Of a stretch of DNA of 64,000 nucleotides, positions 3-46,053 are shown in pieces. Position 1 is the stretch's first letter, and the number at the start of each line of letters is the position of its first letter. Both the position numbers and the translations under genes were made by a program. This DNA is from a virus, in IMG/VR virus record IMGVR_UViG_3300007609_000008, positions 32,001 through 96,000 of that record; one strand, given 5' to 3'. Under the pieces are notes generated by a model. That model made no database searches, was not told where the DNA came from, and saw nothing but the letters and a program-made list of their open reading frames with translations.

Positions 3-266
3 CATACCCTAAGCTCAGATGGTCGTCTGGAGACCATCACTAAGGAATTCCGTACAGTGGAAAAGTTTACGGAAACCACACTCGGTACGGTTCTAGTCGG
101 ACAGTCCTTCCTTAAGTATGACCTGCTCGCTAGGAATGTGGCCAAGTATGAGAAGCTGCCCCTATCGTCAAAGGTCAAGGTAGGATTCAATGGTAAACAG
201 AAGGAAATCCACTTCGACGGCAAGCGATTTGTCCAGATTGGTACTGATTACCATGGGGAAGTGTAA
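3..266 (+). CDS. hypothetical protein, 5' partial
   Basis: Frame is open from base 3 (HTLSSDGRLETITKEFRTVEKF...) to TAA 264-266; codon style matches neighbouring early genes. Confidence 0.7.
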   Translation, partial: HTLSSDGRLETITKEFRTVEKFTETTLGTVLVGQSFLKYDLLARNVAKYEKLPLSSKVKVGFNGKQKEIHFDGKRFVQIGTDYHGEV

Positions 267-283
267 AAAAGTTAAAAAAAGGG

Positions 284-312
284 TTGACAAATAGGAAAAA
301 GCCTGTCATAAT
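284..312 (+). promoter_or_regulatory. sigma70-type early promoter cassette 1
   Basis: TTGACA 284-289, 17 bp, CATAAT 307-312; A-tract upstream; GAGGA RBS before ATG 348. Confidence 0.85.
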
Positions 313-347
313 AGCTCTACAAACTGAAAAAAACGAGGAAAATCATC

Positions 348-713
348 ATGGCATATGTATCACAAGCGGACAAAAAAGCACTGGCTCCTGAAATCAAGCG
401 AGTCCTCAATAAGTACGGCATGAAAGGTACCCTAGCAGTCCGCAACCACATGACCCTAGTCTGTAATATCAAGTCTGGCAAGCTGGATTTCACTGAAGGC
501 ACTCACGGTGACGGCTACACTCAGGTAAATCCTTATTGGATCGACCGTACTTACACTGGTGAGAAGGAAGCCTTCCTCACTGAGCTCCTAGGAGCGATGA
601 AAGGTCCAGACTTCTATGATCGCTCGGATGTTATGACCGATTATTTCGATATTTCCCATTATACTGATATTAATATCGGCGACTGGAACAAGCCTTACAC
701 CAAAGTTTCATAG
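348..713 (+). CDS. conserved phage early protein, possibly LPD25/LPD29-like
   Basis: 121 aa with own promoter and RBS; C-terminal RSDVMTDYFDISHY resembles the D-x-MTDYF motif recalled for these domains. Confidence 0.6.
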   Translation: MAYVSQADKKALAPEIKRVLNKYGMKGTLAVRNHMTLVCNIKSGKLDFTEGTHGDGYTQVNPYWIDRTYTGEKEAFLTELLGAMKGPDFYDRSDVMTDYFDISHYTDINIGDWNKPYTKVS

Positions 714-31599: not shown

Positions 31600-32262
31600 A
31601 TGAAAAATTTTATACACATTGAAGCTCCAACATTACCATCTCTGTCTCGTAAAAACATAGACGGCAAGAGAGTATATGTAAATGGAGATGGAGATAAATA
31701 TCCATCTGTCACTTCAGTTCTTTCTGTTCGTGGTAAGAAAGGTATATTTGAGTGGCGCCAACGAGTTGGTGCAGAAGAAGCAGATAGAGTTTCACGTAAA
31801 GCCTCTACTCGAGGCACAAGAATACATAAATTGTGTGAAACATACTTGCTTAACGAAGAACTACCTGAATTGTTGCCACTAGACTTAGATACTTGGAAAA
31901 AATTTCGACCTATTGTTGAGCGCATAGATAATATTCATTACGTTGAACCATTTCTGTATAGTAATCATTTAGGAATGGCAGGTCAGTGTGACTGTATTGC
32001 AGAGTTTGATGGTAAGTTGTCGGTCATTGACTTTAAGACTTCACGCCGTCTCAAAAAGCATGAAGGCATTTCAGGTTACTTTGCTCAATGTGCTGCATAT
32101 GCTGTTATGTATGAGGAACTAACTGGAATCGCTATAAATAGAACAGTTGTCCTTATTGCAGTAGATGGTGAAGAGCCACAAATCTTTATAGAGAAGCGTG
32201 ACAATTACACTGACTATCTTTTAGAGTCAAAAAGAATGTTTGAAAATGGCGAATACGACTAG
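31600..32262 (+). CDS. PD-(D/E)XK (Cas4-like) exonuclease
   Basis: YPSVTSVL, RGTRIH, AGQCDCI...IDFKTS, Q..AYA motifs. Confidence 0.88.
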   Translation: MKNFIHIEAPTLPSLSRKNIDGKRVYVNGDGDKYPSVTSVLSVRGKKGIFEWRQRVGAEEADRVSRKASTRGTRIHKLCETYLLNEELPELLPLDLDTWKKFRPIVERIDNIHYVEPFLYSNHLGMAGQCDCIAEFDGKLSVIDFKTSRRLKKHEGISGYFAQCAAYAVMYEELTGIAINRTVVLIAVDGEEPQIFIEKRDNYTDYLLESKRMFENGEYD

Positions 32263-40921: not shown

Positions 40922-41449
40922 ATGGCCACTATAGTTACAAGAGCGAGTCTTCCAAGAGCCCTTACCACTGAGGAAATGGATGCTAACTTTACTAATTTGA
41001 ATGATGAACTGGCAGCAGTCGATTCTGCTGGTAAACTTGATGCAGCAGACGGCACTGCAACAGGAACATTGACCGCAGAAGATATCGTTGCAGATAATGT
41101 GACTGCTGATCTTAAAGGCTACGGCGAAGCAATGCTGACTACTAGCTCCGCTTCAGGTGCAATCAGTCTAGATTTATCTGCTGCTAATATATTTAAACTA
41201 GAATTGGCCGGAGATGTCACTGTAACATTTACAAATCCTCCTGAAGCAGGTTCTACTTCTGTAGCAACAATTATCGCAATTCAAGATGGCTCTGGTGGAC
41301 ACTCAATTACATGGACAGATGGAATTTTTGCAGGCGGCGTTGCTCCTCCTGATTCTACAGGAGCAAACGAAGTCGATATATGGACTGCTTTCACATATGA
41401 TCAAGGCACTTCATATGTGGTTTCTTTATCGATGAAGGATGTTAGCTAA
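40922..41449 (+). CDS. virion structural / tail-fibre-associated protein
   Basis: N-terminal TRA...LT.EEMDANF motif and C-terminal SLDLS...QDGSGG.SITW...DI beta domain, both recalled from phage tail proteins; late promoter. Confidence 0.7.
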   Translation: MATIVTRASLPRALTTEEMDANFTNLNDELAAVDSAGKLDAADGTATGTLTAEDIVADNVTADLKGYGEAMLTTSSASGAISLDLSAANIFKLELAGDVTVTFTNPPEAGSTSVATIIAIQDGSGGHSITWTDGIFAGGVAPPDSTGANEVDIWTAFTYDQGTSYVVSLSMKDVS

Positions 41450-43014
41450 TGCCAATTGGTAAGTTTGGATTAGAAAAAACCTGGAGAGCTAGTGGTACTG
41501 GTACTACTACTGTTAATACTTCTGGTAATTTTGATGTGCCATTCGGAAAACATGATATCACAGTAGAGGGTAAAGGTGGCTCAGGTACTGCCGCTGTTCC
41601 CTCTAACGTTGCATCTTATAATGCCCCAACACCGGGCAACGTAGCGTCTTATAATGCCCCAACACCGGGCAACGTAGCGTCTTATAATGCAGAGTCTGGT
41701 GGTAACGTTGCTACTTACAATTCAGAAGTAGCCGGCAATCCTGCAACTTACAATCCTGAGTCAGGTGGAAATGCTGCAACTTACAATGCTGACACGCCTG
41801 GTAACCCAGCAACTTACAATCCTGAAACGCCTGGTAACCCAGCAACATACAATGCTATAACTTACAATGCACCGACTTTTGAGCCTGGAAATGAGTCTGG
41901 TGGCGGCAATGTAGCGTCATTTAATTTAGCATTCTTTAGTCCAGGAAATCCGACTTATAATTCAATAAGTTACAATGCACCGACTTTTGAACCTGGCAAT
42001 GTGTCTGGTGGTGGTAATGTTTCTGGTGGTGGTGATGTTGCATTTAGTAATCCACCTACGTACAATGCTGTAACGTATAATGCACCATCGTTCGAACCTG
42101 GCAATGTGTCTGGTGGTGGTAATGTAGCGTCTTATAACTCTCCTACTAACACTCCGGGCAATGCGGCATCGTATAATGCACCATTGTTTGTTCCGGAGAT
42201 TATATATGGCCCAGGATCTGGAATACCAAACGATCCATCAGTATATGAGCCTGGTAATCCGACAAGTTATAATCCACCAACATCAACACCTGGCAACCCA
42301 GCATCATACAATCCTATAACGTATAATGCACCATCGGTAACACCTGGTAACGTATCTGGTGGTGGTAATGTTGATTCGCCTGGGACAACAAACTACACTC
42401 CGACAACTTATAATCCAATAACATATAATGCACCTAGCGTAGTGCCTGGCAACCAAGTAGGCGGAAATTTTGCTGGAAACAATTCAGGAACCTTTTCCCC
42501 AAGCAATCCAGCAACGTACAATCCTATAACTTATAATGCACCATCGATAGAGCCTGGTAACGTATCTGGTGGTGGTAATGTTGCGTCAAATAATTCTCCT
42601 ACTCCAGGTACTGTTGCAACTTATAACTCACCAATAGCTGGAAATGTGGCATCATATAACCCACCTACCGGAGGGAATGTAGCGACATATAATACAGGAG
42701 CGAGTAGTAATCCTGCGACATATAACCCAGAGATACCAGGAAATCCTGCTACATATAATGCAGAGGTAACAGGAAATCCTGCAACTTACAATGCGCCTGA
42801 TGGTGGAAACATAGCGACATACAACGCTGCTCAGCCAGCTGTACCTGGAGAACCAGCAACTGCTATGGGAGTAACTTTACCTGGATCTAATGTCGGAGGA
42901 ACAGATGCTCCGTTCACTCCTCCACAAAAAGTATCTTATTATGACTATCCAGATTCAGAAACATATCCAGTTACTGTGCCTGATGGAGGCAATGTAGTCA
43001 TAAAAAGTAATTGA
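41449..43014 (+). CDS. Pro/Tyr/Asn/Gly repeat protein, putative fibre
   Basis: Non-repetitive ends flank ~430 aa of xA(S/T)YN...GN 11-mers and TYNAP..EPGN.SGGGN modules; TAATG-coupled to the upstream gene. Confidence 0.8.
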   Translation: MPIGKFGLEKTWRASGTGTTTVNTSGNFDVPFGKHDITVEGKGGSGTAAVPSNVASYNAPTPGNVASYNAPTPGNVASYNAESGGNVATYNSEVAGNPATYNPESGGNAATYNADTPGNPATYNPETPGNPATYNAITYNAPTFEPGNESGGGNVASFNLAFFSPGNPTYNSISYNAPTFEPGNVSGGGNVSGGGDVAFSNPPTYNAVTYNAPSFEPGNVSGGGNVASYNSPTNTPGNAASYNAPLFVPEIIYGPGSGIPNDPSVYEPGNPTSYNPPTSTPGNPASYNPITYNAPSVTPGNVSGGGNVDSPGTTNYTPTTYNPITYNAPSVVPGNQVGGNFAGNNSGTFSPSNPATYNPITYNAPSIEPGNVSGGGNVASNNSPTPGTVATYNSPIAGNVASYNPPTGGNVATYNTGASSNPATYNPEIPGNPATYNAEVTGNPATYNAPDGGNIATYNAAQPAVPGEPATAMGVTLPGSNVGGTDAPFTPPQKVSYYDYPDSETYPVTVPDGGNVVIKSN

Positions 43015-43039
43015 CAATTAACTAAATATGTTATAGAAT
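43011..43039 (+). promoter_or_regulatory. sigma70 promoter overlapping a late-type CTAAATA
   Basis: TTGACA 43011-43016, 17 bp, TAGAAT 43034-43039; CTAAATA at 43022-43028. Confidence 0.6.
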
Positions 43040-43065
43040 TGTATATTATTTAAAAGTGAAAAATT

Positions 43066-43656
43066 ATGACTGCAATAAACAAGTATGTTGGTGAGTTACA
43101 GTGTTACGCTCACATGAATCGAGCTTTCACAGAAGAAGAAGTCGAAAAAATTCGAGAAATCGAAGAGCTTCAATCATTTCAAAAAGGCACAGTTGGTGGC
43201 AAACTAACTGGTGCTGCATTAAAAAAAGCCAGAGATTCTGACGTATTCTTTATGGACCATGACGATAATACGGATTGGTTATATCAAAGAATGTCTTATC
43301 TAATAGCACAAGCTAATAAAGACCACTTTTTATATAATGTAGATGATTTTGGTCCAATGCAGTATACTAAATATCAGATAGATGGTCATTATACATGGCA
43401 CTGGGATGTTTTCTTTGGCTGGCAGAAAAACACAAGAAAAATATCAGTTGTAGTATTTCTCAACGAACCTGAAGATTATGAAGGCGGAGAATTTGAAATA
43501 GTCACTAATGGAAATCTAGATGAAATCAAACAGTTAAAGCCTTTGAAGGGCGATGTATTGTTTTTTGCATCTTGGATGCCACATCGAGTTTTGCCTGTAA
43601 CTTCAGGCGAAAGAAATACACTTGTTACTTGGGTAACTGGTCCTAGAGAATCGTAA
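43066..43656 (+). CDS. prolyl-4-hydroxylase-like 2OG-Fe(II) oxygenase
   Basis: HYTWHWD (HxD), RKISVVVFLN, YEGGEF, GDVLFFAS..PHRV.PVTSGERNTLVTW. Confidence 0.92.
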   Translation: MTAINKYVGELQCYAHMNRAFTEEEVEKIREIEELQSFQKGTVGGKLTGAALKKARDSDVFFMDHDDNTDWLYQRMSYLIAQANKDHFLYNVDDFGPMQYTKYQIDGHYTWHWDVFFGWQKNTRKISVVVFLNEPEDYEGGEFEIVTNGNLDEIKQLKPLKGDVLFFASWMPHRVLPVTSGERNTLVTWVTGPRES

Positions 43657-44384
43657 TGTTTAATTTTTTGAAAAGAAAAGAAAAGCCAATAATTGAATTT
43701 TATTGTCATCCAAATGTTGAGGGTACTATTCCAACTCCTAGGCCAGCGAGCAAACATGTACCAGACTGGTTTAAAAGTATACCACCTACAATGCCTGGGC
43801 GTGATGCTAGAAATAGAAAAGGACTCACTGCAAAAAAATGTATGCCAATGCTGGATGCAATGACACTAGGTTATGTTATACCTCTGTGCGGCGATCTTGG
43901 ACTGAAGTCTTCTGAAGACTGTAATACAATTGAAGTTTTTAATCCTGATGAGCTTAAATTGGCAGAGTTTCATGACCTCAATCAGTTGGGGCCAAAAGCT
44001 CCAGGAATGCCAGCACCACCTGTAAAATTTATTAATCATTGGGTGATAAAAACAGCACCAGGCTGGAGCACCCTAATAATACCTCTAGTCAATAATAGTC
44101 TTGCAAATCCTCACTTTACTTGTTTAGGAGGTCTAGTAGACACTGACACCTATCCAAAAGAAATCAACTTTCCTGCTGTCTGGCACACTCCTAATTTTGA
44201 TGGTTTTCTACCTGCAGGCACTCCATTGGTTGTAGCTATACCTATAAAAAGATCTTCTGTTCCGAGAGAATGTGTGACTAGACCAATGACGGATAAAGAA
44301 TTTAAAGACATTGATATCATACATCGAAAACAATGTAATAAATTGCATGTGTATACCGATGAATTGAGAGAGAAAAGAAAATAA
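43656..44384 (+). CDS. DUF6065-like protein
   Basis: KKCMPMLDAMTLGYVIP, KFINHWVIKTAPGWS, GLVDTD and GTPLV..IP; family call from recall. Confidence 0.6.
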   Translation: MFNFLKRKEKPIIEFYCHPNVEGTIPTPRPASKHVPDWFKSIPPTMPGRDARNRKGLTAKKCMPMLDAMTLGYVIPLCGDLGLKSSEDCNTIEVFNPDELKLAEFHDLNQLGPKAPGMPAPPVKFINHWVIKTAPGWSTLIIPLVNNSLANPHFTCLGGLVDTDTYPKEINFPAVWHTPNFDGFLPAGTPLVVAIPIKRSSVPRECVTRPMTDKEFKDIDIIHRKQCNKLHVYTDELREKRK

Positions 44385-45106
44385 TGTTTTCAATATTTAA
44401 GAAAGAAAAAGATATCGAGTTTGTAGACGTAACTAGAAATGCGTATTTAGATTTTCCTGTTATGATGGCTAAAGATGTTCCTGTGCTAGGAAAAGACGAA
44501 AGAATAGAGAAGTTTGGAGTAAATAAATTTGTACATTGTCCTGGTATGGTAGATTATGCTAAACTAGGTTACGTAATACCTGCTTGGTGCGATATGCGAA
44601 TTAAAGCAAATAAAGCAGGAGTAGTGGCTACTATTGGAGACAACAGAAGAGGCACAAGAGGATTTCATTTACCTAAAAAAATGGATCAAACTATTGTCGA
44701 TGGAATAATAGAACCAGAAGACGGTGTTCCCTTGACAGTTCTTCATATAGGCGCCCCTTGGAATATTTTTGTAAATAAAAATATATCTGCATTACTGATG
44801 CCTGCAGTTTATCATTCGAAGGTTTTTGATGATTTACATGTCTGGCCAGGAGTAGTTGATTACAAAAATTTTACTACTGCTAATTTAATTTGTACTCCGA
44901 AGCGCAAGTGTGAATTTACAATTAAAGCAGGCGAGCCACTCATACATGTGATACCTTTTCTAAATACTCATTTAGAAGCTGGATATGGTCCAGGAACTGA
45001 ACAACAGGTAGATAAGAGTAGAAATACTATACTAGGAGGAGACAGTCAATATTACAGAAAGTTTCTTTCTGTAAAAAAAATATTTAGACTGGAAAAAGAA
45101 GAATGA
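44384..45106 (+). CDS. DUF6065-like protein, paralogue of the previous gene
   Basis: HCPGMVDYAKLGYVIPAW, APWNI, GVVDY and GEPLIHVIP align with the previous gene. Confidence 0.6.
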   Translation: MFSIFKKEKDIEFVDVTRNAYLDFPVMMAKDVPVLGKDERIEKFGVNKFVHCPGMVDYAKLGYVIPAWCDMRIKANKAGVVATIGDNRRGTRGFHLPKKMDQTIVDGIIEPEDGVPLTVLHIGAPWNIFVNKNISALLMPAVYHSKVFDDLHVWPGVVDYKNFTTANLICTPKRKCEFTIKAGEPLIHVIPFLNTHLEAGYGPGTEQQVDKSRNTILGGDSQYYRKFLSVKKIFRLEKEE

Positions 45107-46053
45107 AAATATTTGTTAGCATAGTATCTTTTAGAGATCCCTTATTAAAATACACTGTTAAAAGCCTGTTAGAAGAACAGTCAGGCGACAATGAAATTAT
45201 AATAGGCATATTCGAACAGACAAAATTAGAAGACAGTCTTGTTACTATCGATAAAGAGCTAACAGAGAAGCATAATATTAGATATAAGCGAATTGATCCT
45301 GAGTATGCAGCAGGAGTAGTTTGGGCCAGAAAAATAAATGCAACTCAAATTGAAGATGAAGACTTCTTCTATCAAGTAGATTCACACATTCTATACGATA
45401 GAAACTGGGACAGATACTTGTTGCAAGATTGGGAACTCGCTAGACAAAAAGCAGAAAGTAGTAGAGTAATTTTGACTGCGGCATGTTATATTTACACGCT
45501 CGATGAGGACGGCATTCCTAATAAAGTAACACATAAAGATAATCCATACACCACTTCTTCTAAGTATTTTACTTTCCAAAGACACAATAGATTACCTGCT
45601 GCTCATGGTGAATGGATACCTAAGACTGATGAGGTCATGCCAGCAATTCATATTTTTGCAGGCAATTTTTTTGCTCCTGTAAAGTGGGTTGATGATGTAG
45701 GGTATGACGCTAGAATATTCTTCGAAGGCGAAGAGCAATATATGGTATTAAAATCTTTCATACAAGGTTGGAATTTATATCATTCACGAGAAATGCATTG
45801 TTATCATTATGCAGAAGCGCACAATCACGTAACAAAGCACTGGATAGATCCTGTTTCAAACAATTACACTACCATGATGGCAAAGGGACTCTTGTATTGG
45901 AAGAAATTTTTAGAGAGCATATCCGAAGAAGACTTAAAAAAATATTATGAATATTCTGGTGTTGATTATATAAATGGTATAATTGAAGAAAGAGCATTCA
46001 CCCGCCAAATCATAGATCCTAACGCAACTGGTACTCCAGACTCAGAAGACTAG
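45103..46053 (+). CDS. Gnt1/GT60-like hydroxyproline GlcNAc-transferase
   Basis: IFVSIVSFRD, A.G..WAR, QVDSH...WD, VILT and FFEGEE match the motif series recalled for Dictyostelium Gnt1. Confidence 0.8.
   Translation: MKIFVSIVSFRDPLLKYTVKSLLEEQSGDNEIIIGIFEQTKLEDSLVTIDKELTEKHNIRYKRIDPEYAAGVVWARKINATQIEDEDFFYQVDSHILYDRNWDRYLLQDWELARQKAESSRVILTAACYIYTLDEDGIPNKVTHKDNPYTTSSKYFTFQRHNRLPAAHGEWIPKTDEVMPAIHIFAGNFFAPVKWVDDVGYDARIFFEGEEQYMVLKSFIQGWNLYHSREMHCYHYAEAHNHVTKHWIDPVSNNYTTMMAKGLLYWKKFLESISEEDLKKYYEYSGVDYINGIIEERAFTRQIIDPNATGTPDSED

Follow-up and report, generated by a model that had tools for sequence, protein, structure and literature searches.

A candidate out-and-back hairpin fiber protein with length-balanced repeat arms in uncultured T4-like phages

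Within the 64,000-nucleotide (nt) window analyzed here (positions 32,001 to 96,000 of the IMG/VR virus record IMGVR_UViG_3300007609_000008, from an uncultured T4-like phage), an intact open reading frame (ORF) on the plus strand at positions 41449-43014 comprises 521 codons plus a stop and encodes a protein in which two arms of tandem repeats and a unique center lie between two conserved terminal caps. The gene is present in single copy in the 125,421-bp genome. It directly follows a tail-fiber-like ORF, whose stop codon its ATG overlaps by one base (TAATG, 41447-41451), with a ribosome-binding site (GAAGGA) 10 nt 5' of this ATG, and it is itself followed by genes for an oxygenase, two paralogous phrog_7084 proteins, and a glycosyltransferase (Table 1). 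We consider it probable that the encoded protein is a fiber-associated structural protein made of one long out-and-back hairpin, the base of which would be docked on the fiber while the tip would be distal and in contact with the host.

Repeat architecture of the 521-residue protein

Table 1. Features of the repeat-protein gene and its cassette neighbors (window coordinates; aa, amino acids; AF2, AlphaFold2)
Feature	Position	Strand	Details
Upstream tail-fiber-like ORF, 175 aa	40922..41449	+	phrog_9017 (2e-8), phrog_7760; C-terminal domain of ~125 aa is the conserved partner
Whole gene of the putative hairpin-repeat protein	41449..43014	+	521 aa plus stop
N-cap, aa 1-53, half of the predicted base domain	41449..41607	+	Three beta-strands in the AF2 model; near-invariant columns of the family
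N arm near the base, aa 54-130: seven 11-residue repeats	41608..41838	+	Repeat parse
N arm near the tip, aa 131-238: three long modules and one 13-mer	41839..42162	+	Repeat parse
Unique center, proposed tip or turn, aa 239-270 (32 aa)	42163..42258	+	Sole segment between the caps without internal near-copies
C arm near the tip, aa 271-377: one 13-mer and three long modules	42259..42579	+	Repeat parse
C arm near the base, aa 378-465: seven 11-mers and a degenerate eighth	42580..42843	+	Repeat parse
C-cap, aa 466-521, other half of the predicted base domain	42844..43011	+	Five beta-strands in the AF2 model; near-invariant columns
2-oxoglutarate (2OG)-Fe(II) oxygenase, prolyl-4-hydroxylase type	43066..43656	+	PF13640 at 2e-19; cassette member
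Two paralogous phrog_7084 genes (242 and 240 aa)	43656..45106	+	phrog_7084 at 4e-46 and 3e-21; cassette members
N-acetylglucosamine (GlcNAc)-type glycosyltransferase	45103..46053	+	PF11397 (1.2e-26; 94.5 bits, cut-off 21)

The protein is dominated by Asn (74 residues), Pro (71), and Gly (71, or 13.6%), with 36 Tyr and a single His. A preliminary description of this gene had proposed a mirror-symmetric layout of seven 11-mers, three longer modules, a unique center, three more modules, and seven more 11-mers. Re-parsing the sequence returned the same counts, and added what that description had left out, namely a 13-mer on each side of the center (aa 226-238 and aa 271-283), irregular linkers between the long modules, and an eighth, degenerate 11-mer (aa 455-465) that merges into the C-cap. 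The 11-mers follow the pattern xxxYNxxxPGN and are of the VASYNAPTPGN type with an exact period in the N arm, while the seven of the C arm occupy aa 378-454. The long modules (xTYNxITYNAPxxEPGN plus SGGGN, i.e., two close YN motifs followed by EPGN) lie within aa 131-225 and aa 284-377, and the SGGGN motif is confined to these six modules. Every unit carries an aromatic residue (Tyr or Phe) at a fixed position.

The repeats were also described as diverged at the DNA level, which the unit alignments bear out. Tandem Repeats Finder detected 33-bp arrays on both sides of the center, and the mean identity of the 33-bp units was 22/33 among N-arm units, 18.6/33 among C-arm units, and 19.2/33 (~58%) between units of different arms. 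Only three recent duplications were found (31/33, 29/33, and 28/33), all within an arm, and the 11-mer subtypes follow a direct order in both arms, with V-type units before P-type units. The symmetry of the 521-aa protein is thus one of counts and unit sizes, and not of sequence. An independent k-mer repeat mask (see below) assigns 197 and 211 aa to the arms and 13 aa to the unique core between them. The center itself is a short, Cys-free tip, in which a motif FVPExxYG...P.DP..Y.PGN is common to the closest relatives (L002, L003, and P0001).

A family with conserved caps and balanced arms

Relatives of the 521-aa protein, all of them metagenome-derived, were collected in three ways. HMMER, run exhaustively over 1.84 billion representatives, returned 89 relatives, of which many are fragments, a word-indexed search returned 46, and IMG/VR contributed 45 loci (L001-L045), which form the basis of the gene contexts presented below. 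Full-length members range from 133 to 685 aa and, like the 521-aa protein, carry both caps, with the conserved patterns FxLEKTW ... FNxxGN (FNxPGN) ... PYGK ... V.G.GG.G for the N-cap and PAVPG ... LGV..PG ... YP..V..GG.V.I for the C-cap. Nearly invariant alignment columns are found in the caps only, and what lies between the caps is, in every member, a series of repeats, a non-repetitive segment, and a further series of repeats, with a period of 7-14 residues and nearly always an aromatic-Asn core. The non-repetitive tip is either a short loop or a region of 40-190 aa, often with a CPxP...YxC signature (8 to 186 aa according to the k-mer mask). A Cys knob (CP.P ... Y.C.P, 40-90 aa) was observed at the tip of many homologs, e.g., P0002, P0008, P0053, L004, and L041, and longer homologs also carry this knob at mirrored positions along both arms.

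Arms and tips were delimited using a k-mer uniqueness mask, which marks inter-cap positions whose 5-mer has at least two near-copies elsewhere and has no built-in symmetry. This mask replaced both a BLOSUM window mask, which was too permissive, and a rule taking the largest anchor gap as the tip, which mis-placed tips (r = 0.40). Across the 44 distinct proteins with exactly two repeat blocks, i.e., a single tip, the lengths of the N and C arms (24-289 aa) were nearly equal (r = 0.989, slope 0.97, intercept 4 aa), with a mean |N-C|/(N+C) of 0.066 where 0.5 is expected for a randomly placed tip (Kolmogorov-Smirnov p-value of 5e-27 against a uniform distribution), although the relatedness of the homologs inflates these statistics. 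Counts of aromatic-Asn units in 20 clean cases gave a similar result (r = 0.979, mean difference of 1.5 units), for instance 18/18 in L008, 17/17 in L004, 15/15 in L041, and 27/28 in L023. Proteins with several inserts display mirrored blocks (76/69/54 | 43/67/68 aa in P0030 and 75/31 | 32/46 aa in P0011, with the vertical bar marking the midpoint). Unequal arm counts in homologs had been named beforehand as an observation that would refute an out-and-back architecture, and the arms proved to be balanced from 3+3 to 27+28 units.

Since relatedness inflates the family-wide statistics, a sharper comparison is available within a single clade (L007-L032), in which the caps share 82-98% identity. 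In this clade, N-arm lengths lie between 140 and 289 aa and C-arm lengths between 136 and 284 aa (r = 0.994), corresponding to ~11 to 28 units in both arms, and the two arms are built from different repeat types, with a unit identity of 0.51-0.92 within an arm and of only 0.20-0.26 between arms. At such low between-arm identity, neither a single duplication nor gene conversion can explain the balance, and two different repeat families have thus expanded in parallel on either side of the tip. Metagenome assemblies can mis-assemble repeat arrays, but random assembly errors would unbalance the arms rather than balance them, and about a dozen samples, independent of each other, yielded the same lengths (L010-L019, L036).

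The preliminary description had further predicted that changes in length would need paired duplications, and this held in part. P0005 (400 aa) and P0006 (368 aa) are identical save for one 16-aa unit in each arm, as expected for a paired change; single-unit imbalances, in contrast, occur in P0007 and between L031 and L033. The arms hence tend strongly to change in length as a pair, to within about one unit, but do not invariably do so.

Several members depart from the general form. The closest relative, L001:5998-7422 (57% identity, with the gp4-hub context conserved), is broken within the repeat region into two ORFs, 233 and 241 aa long, that lie in different frames, which reflects either a frameshift or an assembly error. 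P0018 has the first ~20 residues of the N-cap swapped for an unrelated N-terminal segment of ~100 aa, and is the only example of a fusion that was observed. In P0119 (133 aa), the caps are those of P0118 (251 aa), but the tip and most units of both arms are gone, and the protein looks like the outcome of recombination between the arms of a P0118-like form. Along with P0073 (159 aa), P0119 is a natural family member with little beyond the two caps.

Outside this set of relatives, database searches returned no clear match. The 521-aa protein matched no Pfam family at E-values up to 0.01 and no PHROG, and among 51 family members there was no match to relevant Pfam or PHROG models, or to the Pfam glycine-rich families at E-values up to 0.1. 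Megablast and tblastn comparisons of the region and protein to 50,697 phage records identified no relative of the repeat protein, and sequence searches of the PDB, using either the family profile or only the N arm as query, yielded chance-level matches only. Foldseek found no match in the PDB or BFVD at an E-value of 0.001 or better, the BFVD results being leads only (an S-PM2 virion protein and "glycine-rich domain" proteins, at root-mean-square deviations of ~30 Å), and no ESM Atlas score reached 0.8, the score of a "glycine-rich" feature lead (0.78) being too low to be meaningful. We rejected collagen-like, pentapeptide, and extensin readings, as the corresponding Pfam models were matched by single members only. 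The G-X-Y pattern of collagen, with Gly at every third residue, is absent; Gly occurs once or twice per unit, and the period is 11 residues (in relatives 10, or 7-14).

Predicted base domain, hairpin model, and alternatives

AlphaFold2 (AF2) monomer models were obtained for the 521-aa protein, from a 40-sequence alignment, and independently for P0049, a 178-aa homolog with three units per arm. In the former, high predicted local distance difference test (pLDDT) scores, from 86 to 96, were restricted to aa ~20-50 and ~455-521. The N-cap reached 86-94 over aa 20-50, with strands at residues 18-22, 26-29, and 37-42, and the C-cap 89-96. Structure alignment of these models to 48,161 PDB representatives with VIA-align identified single compact beta-sandwiches as best matches, aligned over 75-98 residues at 2.6-4.9 Å and covering model ranges of ~10..521 in the 521-aa protein and 17..178 in P0049. 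Since each cap has at most 55 confident residues, alignments of this length must use both caps, and N-cap and C-cap form one domain in the model, as had been proposed beforehand for the two termini. The matched folds include, at the top, the CUB domain of alpha2-macroglobulin/C3/C5/CD109 (Z-scores of 5.5-6.1), as well as C1q/TNF-family heads, nanovirus and satellite tobacco necrosis virus (STNV) coat proteins, nucleoplasmin, and the Pam3 fiber protein (7ypx_A). Because Z-scores of 4-6 are generic, we claim for the modeled base a split beta-sandwich topology and not a specific fold family.

The model of the shorter P0049 (mean pLDDT of 75.7, predicted template modeling score of 0.57) has confident caps (pLDDT of about 88-96 across both AF2 runs). 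Bridges and short strands are predicted at residues 50, 53, 63, 67-69, and 73 on one side, and at residues 97, 101-104, 108, 119, and 122 on the other. These positions pair with sums of ~170-172 around the least confident segment (86-95), the pattern expected of an antiparallel ladder with a central turn. We regard this pattern as supportive, not decisive, of the earlier suggestion that the chain runs out and returns antiparallel.

Under the hairpin model, the first ~50 and last ~55 residues would fold together into a single eight-stranded beta-sandwich base, from which the N arm of tandem repeats would lead away to the non-repetitive tip, and the C arm, with the same number of repeats, would return antiparallel, so that every unit would have one of the opposite arm at its side. 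Lateral pairing of this kind would allow stable changes in length only where both arms gain or lose units, give or take about one. For the arms themselves, conceivable structures are a meander sandwich of two layers, a trimeric needle with six strands, or a polyproline II (PPII)-like form. The gene would be translationally coupled to the preceding tail-fiber gene, and the base would dock on the C-terminal domain of the upstream fiber, so that the hairpin would hold the tip out as the distal, host-contacting end, with the number of units per arm setting its reach. Docking and a distal tip are suggested because the gene follows a fiber gene, the caps are conserved, and the tip is variable. Overall, lateral pairing of the arms, docking on the fiber, and a role in receptor binding are what we infer from these data.

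A number of observations weigh against this proposal. On the structural side, aa 62-450 of the 521-aa protein were modeled by AF2 with pLDDT below 50 and without secondary structure, the ESM Atlas model of this protein has a pLDDT of 0.38, the arms of P0049 reach a pLDDT of only 48-74, the fold matches of the cap domain are generic (Z-scores of 4.1-6.1), and cap-cap and arm-arm contacts were deduced from aligned ranges and the DSSP string. Among the homologs, P0007 combines a short N arm with a long C arm, a single-unit unpaired change, L031 and L033 differ by one unit in the C arm, and four proteins are unbalanced (97/145 in P0039, 33/62 in P0063, 52/32 in P0101, and 50/28 in P0094). At a finer scale, a mirrored order of unit sizes fits better than a direct one in three of seven comparisons, which favors neither order, and the arms of P0029 are near-identical direct duplicates, i.e., history accounts for some equal arms. 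Finally, presence in the virion and receptor binding are suggested by gene order, the conserved caps, and the variable tip, and all relatives are metagenomic.

The low model confidence would be readily explained if the caps fold while the repeat region is a disordered, low-complexity loop, such as an entropic bristle or tether, with unpaired arms and a pattern devoid of structural meaning. The composition of the repeats, rich in Asn, Pro, Gly, Thr, Ala, and Ser, is in line with this alternative, yet low pLDDT is also expected for repeats with a shallow, register-ambiguous alignment, and an aromatic residue at a fixed position in every unit is untypical of disorder. A disordered loop offers no reason for the equal copy number seen in 44 proteins, or for two different repeat families tracking each other from 11 to 28 units, and would neither mirror the positions of inserts nor give rise to the paired indel of P0005 and P0006. 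We thus consider it unlikely. Another alternative is a fiber or beta-solenoid that runs in one direction, anchored at its N-terminus and ending in a C-terminal head, with a knob or hinge at the center and halves that are equal for another reason, e.g., a jack-knife hinge. In its favor, most phage fibers are unidirectional, unidirectional triple beta-helices and spirals can have repeats with a period of 10-11 residues, and the 11-mer subtypes follow a direct order in both arms. However, both AF2 runs joined the caps in one confident beta-sandwich, natural members such as P0119 and P0073 have almost nothing between the caps, the inter-arm bridges in the P0049 model are symmetric, and a two-ended rod needs no equal halves, all of which makes this arrangement very unlikely.

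Least likely of the three, in our assessment, is that equal arms are a historical by-product of whole-arm duplication or of gene conversion between direct-repeat arrays. P0029 fits such a history, as does L004, in which both arms have the same unit type, and the resemblance of P0119 to P0118 after recombination between arms is also consistent with it. In the L007-L032 clade, however, as well as in P0002, P0047, and L006, the arms belong to different repeat families and their counts still track each other, and conversion cannot equalize arms that are as dissimilar as those of the clade. In the window itself, between-arm divergence at the DNA level and the restriction of recent duplications to single arms likewise argue against it.

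If the hairpin is real, it would represent a rare case in which a protein topology is readable from natural variation in repeat number, and one in which a change in one tandem array must be accompanied by a change in another, unrelated array at a distance of at least 200 residues. The family, for which there is neither a Pfam nor a PHROG model, would then define a previously unannotated component at the host-recognition end of fibers in abundant, uncultured, T4-like aquatic phages, and would improve the annotation of host-recognition regions in such phages. It would also provide a simple scaffold (base, ladder, and tip) in which to study how fiber reach and tip specificity evolve.

Conserved cassette and relation to known fiber ends

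The genes around the repeat protein form a conserved unit of six genes (40922-46053), composed of a fiber end, the repeat protein, the oxygenase, two phrog_7084 paralogs, and the transferase. Among the 45 IMG/VR loci, a homolog of the C-terminal domain of the 175-aa ORF lies directly 5' of the family gene in 44, where it ends proteins of 630-1350 aa matching many tail-fiber PHROGs. The oxygenase, which among solved structures is closest to PKHD-type hydroxylases and prolyl 4-hydroxylases, lies directly 3' of the family gene in 41 loci; 41 loci also encode both phrog_7084 genes and 34 the PF11397 transferase, the others stopping at contig edges. On the opposite strand, upstream of this unit, the window encodes T4-type gp4, gp2, tail-tube-like, and baseplate-hub genes, and this gp4-hub block is common only to the four closest loci. 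Matches to cultured phages were limited to these neighboring core genes (35-42% identity), with best relatives in Synechococcus phage BUCT-ZZ01, Sinorhizobium phiM12-like phages, and Pelagibacter myophages. Because, unlike the T4-core genes that flank it, the six-gene cassette is kept in 34-44 of the 45 loci, its enzymes may act on, or with, the Pro/Asn-rich repeat protein. A comparable make-up has been described in pelagimyophages, the host-recognition cluster of which includes radical S-adenosylmethionine (SAM) cassettes and glycosyltransferases (PMC7029224).

A bolder reading, which we regard as possible but doubtful, is that the family constitutes a new class of receptor-binding protein, i.e., a length-tunable two-arm repeat ladder whose Pro/Asn-rich rungs would be hydroxylated and GlcNAc-glycosylated by the cassette enzymes. 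Its parts (a single chain or trimer, a split beta-sandwich base, and a reach set by co-expanding non-homologous arrays) are likewise, when taken jointly, only tentatively proposed. If true, this would amount to a virion-borne hydroxyproline-glycoprotein system in bacteriophages, and the conserved prolyl-hydroxylase-like and GlcNAc-type neighbors make hydroxylation and glycosylation of a phage structural protein directly testable.

The closest functional parallel to the proposed hairpin is the receptor-binding tip of T4 gp37, in which, as reportedly established by Bartual et al. in 2010, each chain extends along a thin shaft as far as a distal head and comes back antiparallel. As in this needle, the termini of the segment would lie together at the base and the tip at the turn, which in the repeat protein is suggested by the models and the arm balance, and which in gp37 is where the receptor site is located, at the distal turn. 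The gp37 needle has been described as iron-binding (PMC6957217). Unlike gp37, the 521-aa protein has no repeated His-x-His iron motifs, its one His aside, and no sequence homology to it, having no sequence relative in the PDB and no Pfam or PHROG match. The gp37 needle, in turn, is a homotrimer with a six-stranded shaft, is not made of countable tandem repeats, is not known to vary in length by paired unit changes, and is the C-terminal part of the long fiber protein, whereas the putative hairpin protein is encoded by a separate small gene after the fiber gene.

A second group of known out-and-back tips comprises Pam3 gp24 (PDB 7YPX), S16 gp38, and the TNFL/Gly-rich region of ALK, in which strands of a TNF-like sandwich extend into out-and-back loops that follow the fiber axis and have variable distal tips (PMC9608196). 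These Pam3-type tips consist of six loops or 10-12 short glycine-rich motifs arranged in a lattice, with 39% Gly in Pam3 (PMC9608196). Like the gene studied here, gp38 is a separate gene after the fiber gene and its product sits on the fiber tip, so that gp38 on gp37 in T2-like and S16-type phages may serve, by analogy, as a model for a base-docked distal component. The cap domain aligns to 7ypx_A with Z-scores of 4.1-5.2 and 20% identity over 74-76 residues, and to ALK (7nx3_A) with a Z-score of 3.7; such TNF/C1q-type matches (3.7-5.2) tie with those to many unrelated beta-sandwiches. In contrast to Pam3 gp24, S16 gp38, and ALK, the 521-aa protein would have one very long hairpin of YN/PGN-type units, a much lower Gly content, and no six-loop GGGGxGG lattice. 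The CUB domain of alpha2-macroglobulin, C3-C5, and CD109 falls in the same topology class, a small beta-sandwich split by a large insertion, although its insert is the thioester domain, which is helical and globular, without repeats or any link to phages, making this a purely topological analogy. The family would work like gp37 and Pam3-type tips, but it lacks their defining sequence features. Out-and-back fiber ends as such were already known, and what is new here is an architecture of countable tandem units that vary nearly ten-fold in number.

Additional features were noted among the cassette genes. The 51-nt gap preceding the oxygenase gene contains, at 43011-43039, a near-consensus sigma-70-like promoter (TTGACA, 17 nt, TAGAAT; 11 of 12 positions), and promoter and terminator scans of the region as a whole returned site numbers at chance level. 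The phrog_7084 paralogs had no Pfam match even at an E-value of 10, and only a weak lead to DUF6065, from the ESM Atlas. Their only cultured relatives are found in ~49 records of haloarchaeal myoviruses (HF1, HF2, HRTV, and HCTV types; 30-36% identity) and in two Synechococcus phages (24%), and the phrog_7084 gene of Serpecor1 is located at the edge of the tail module.

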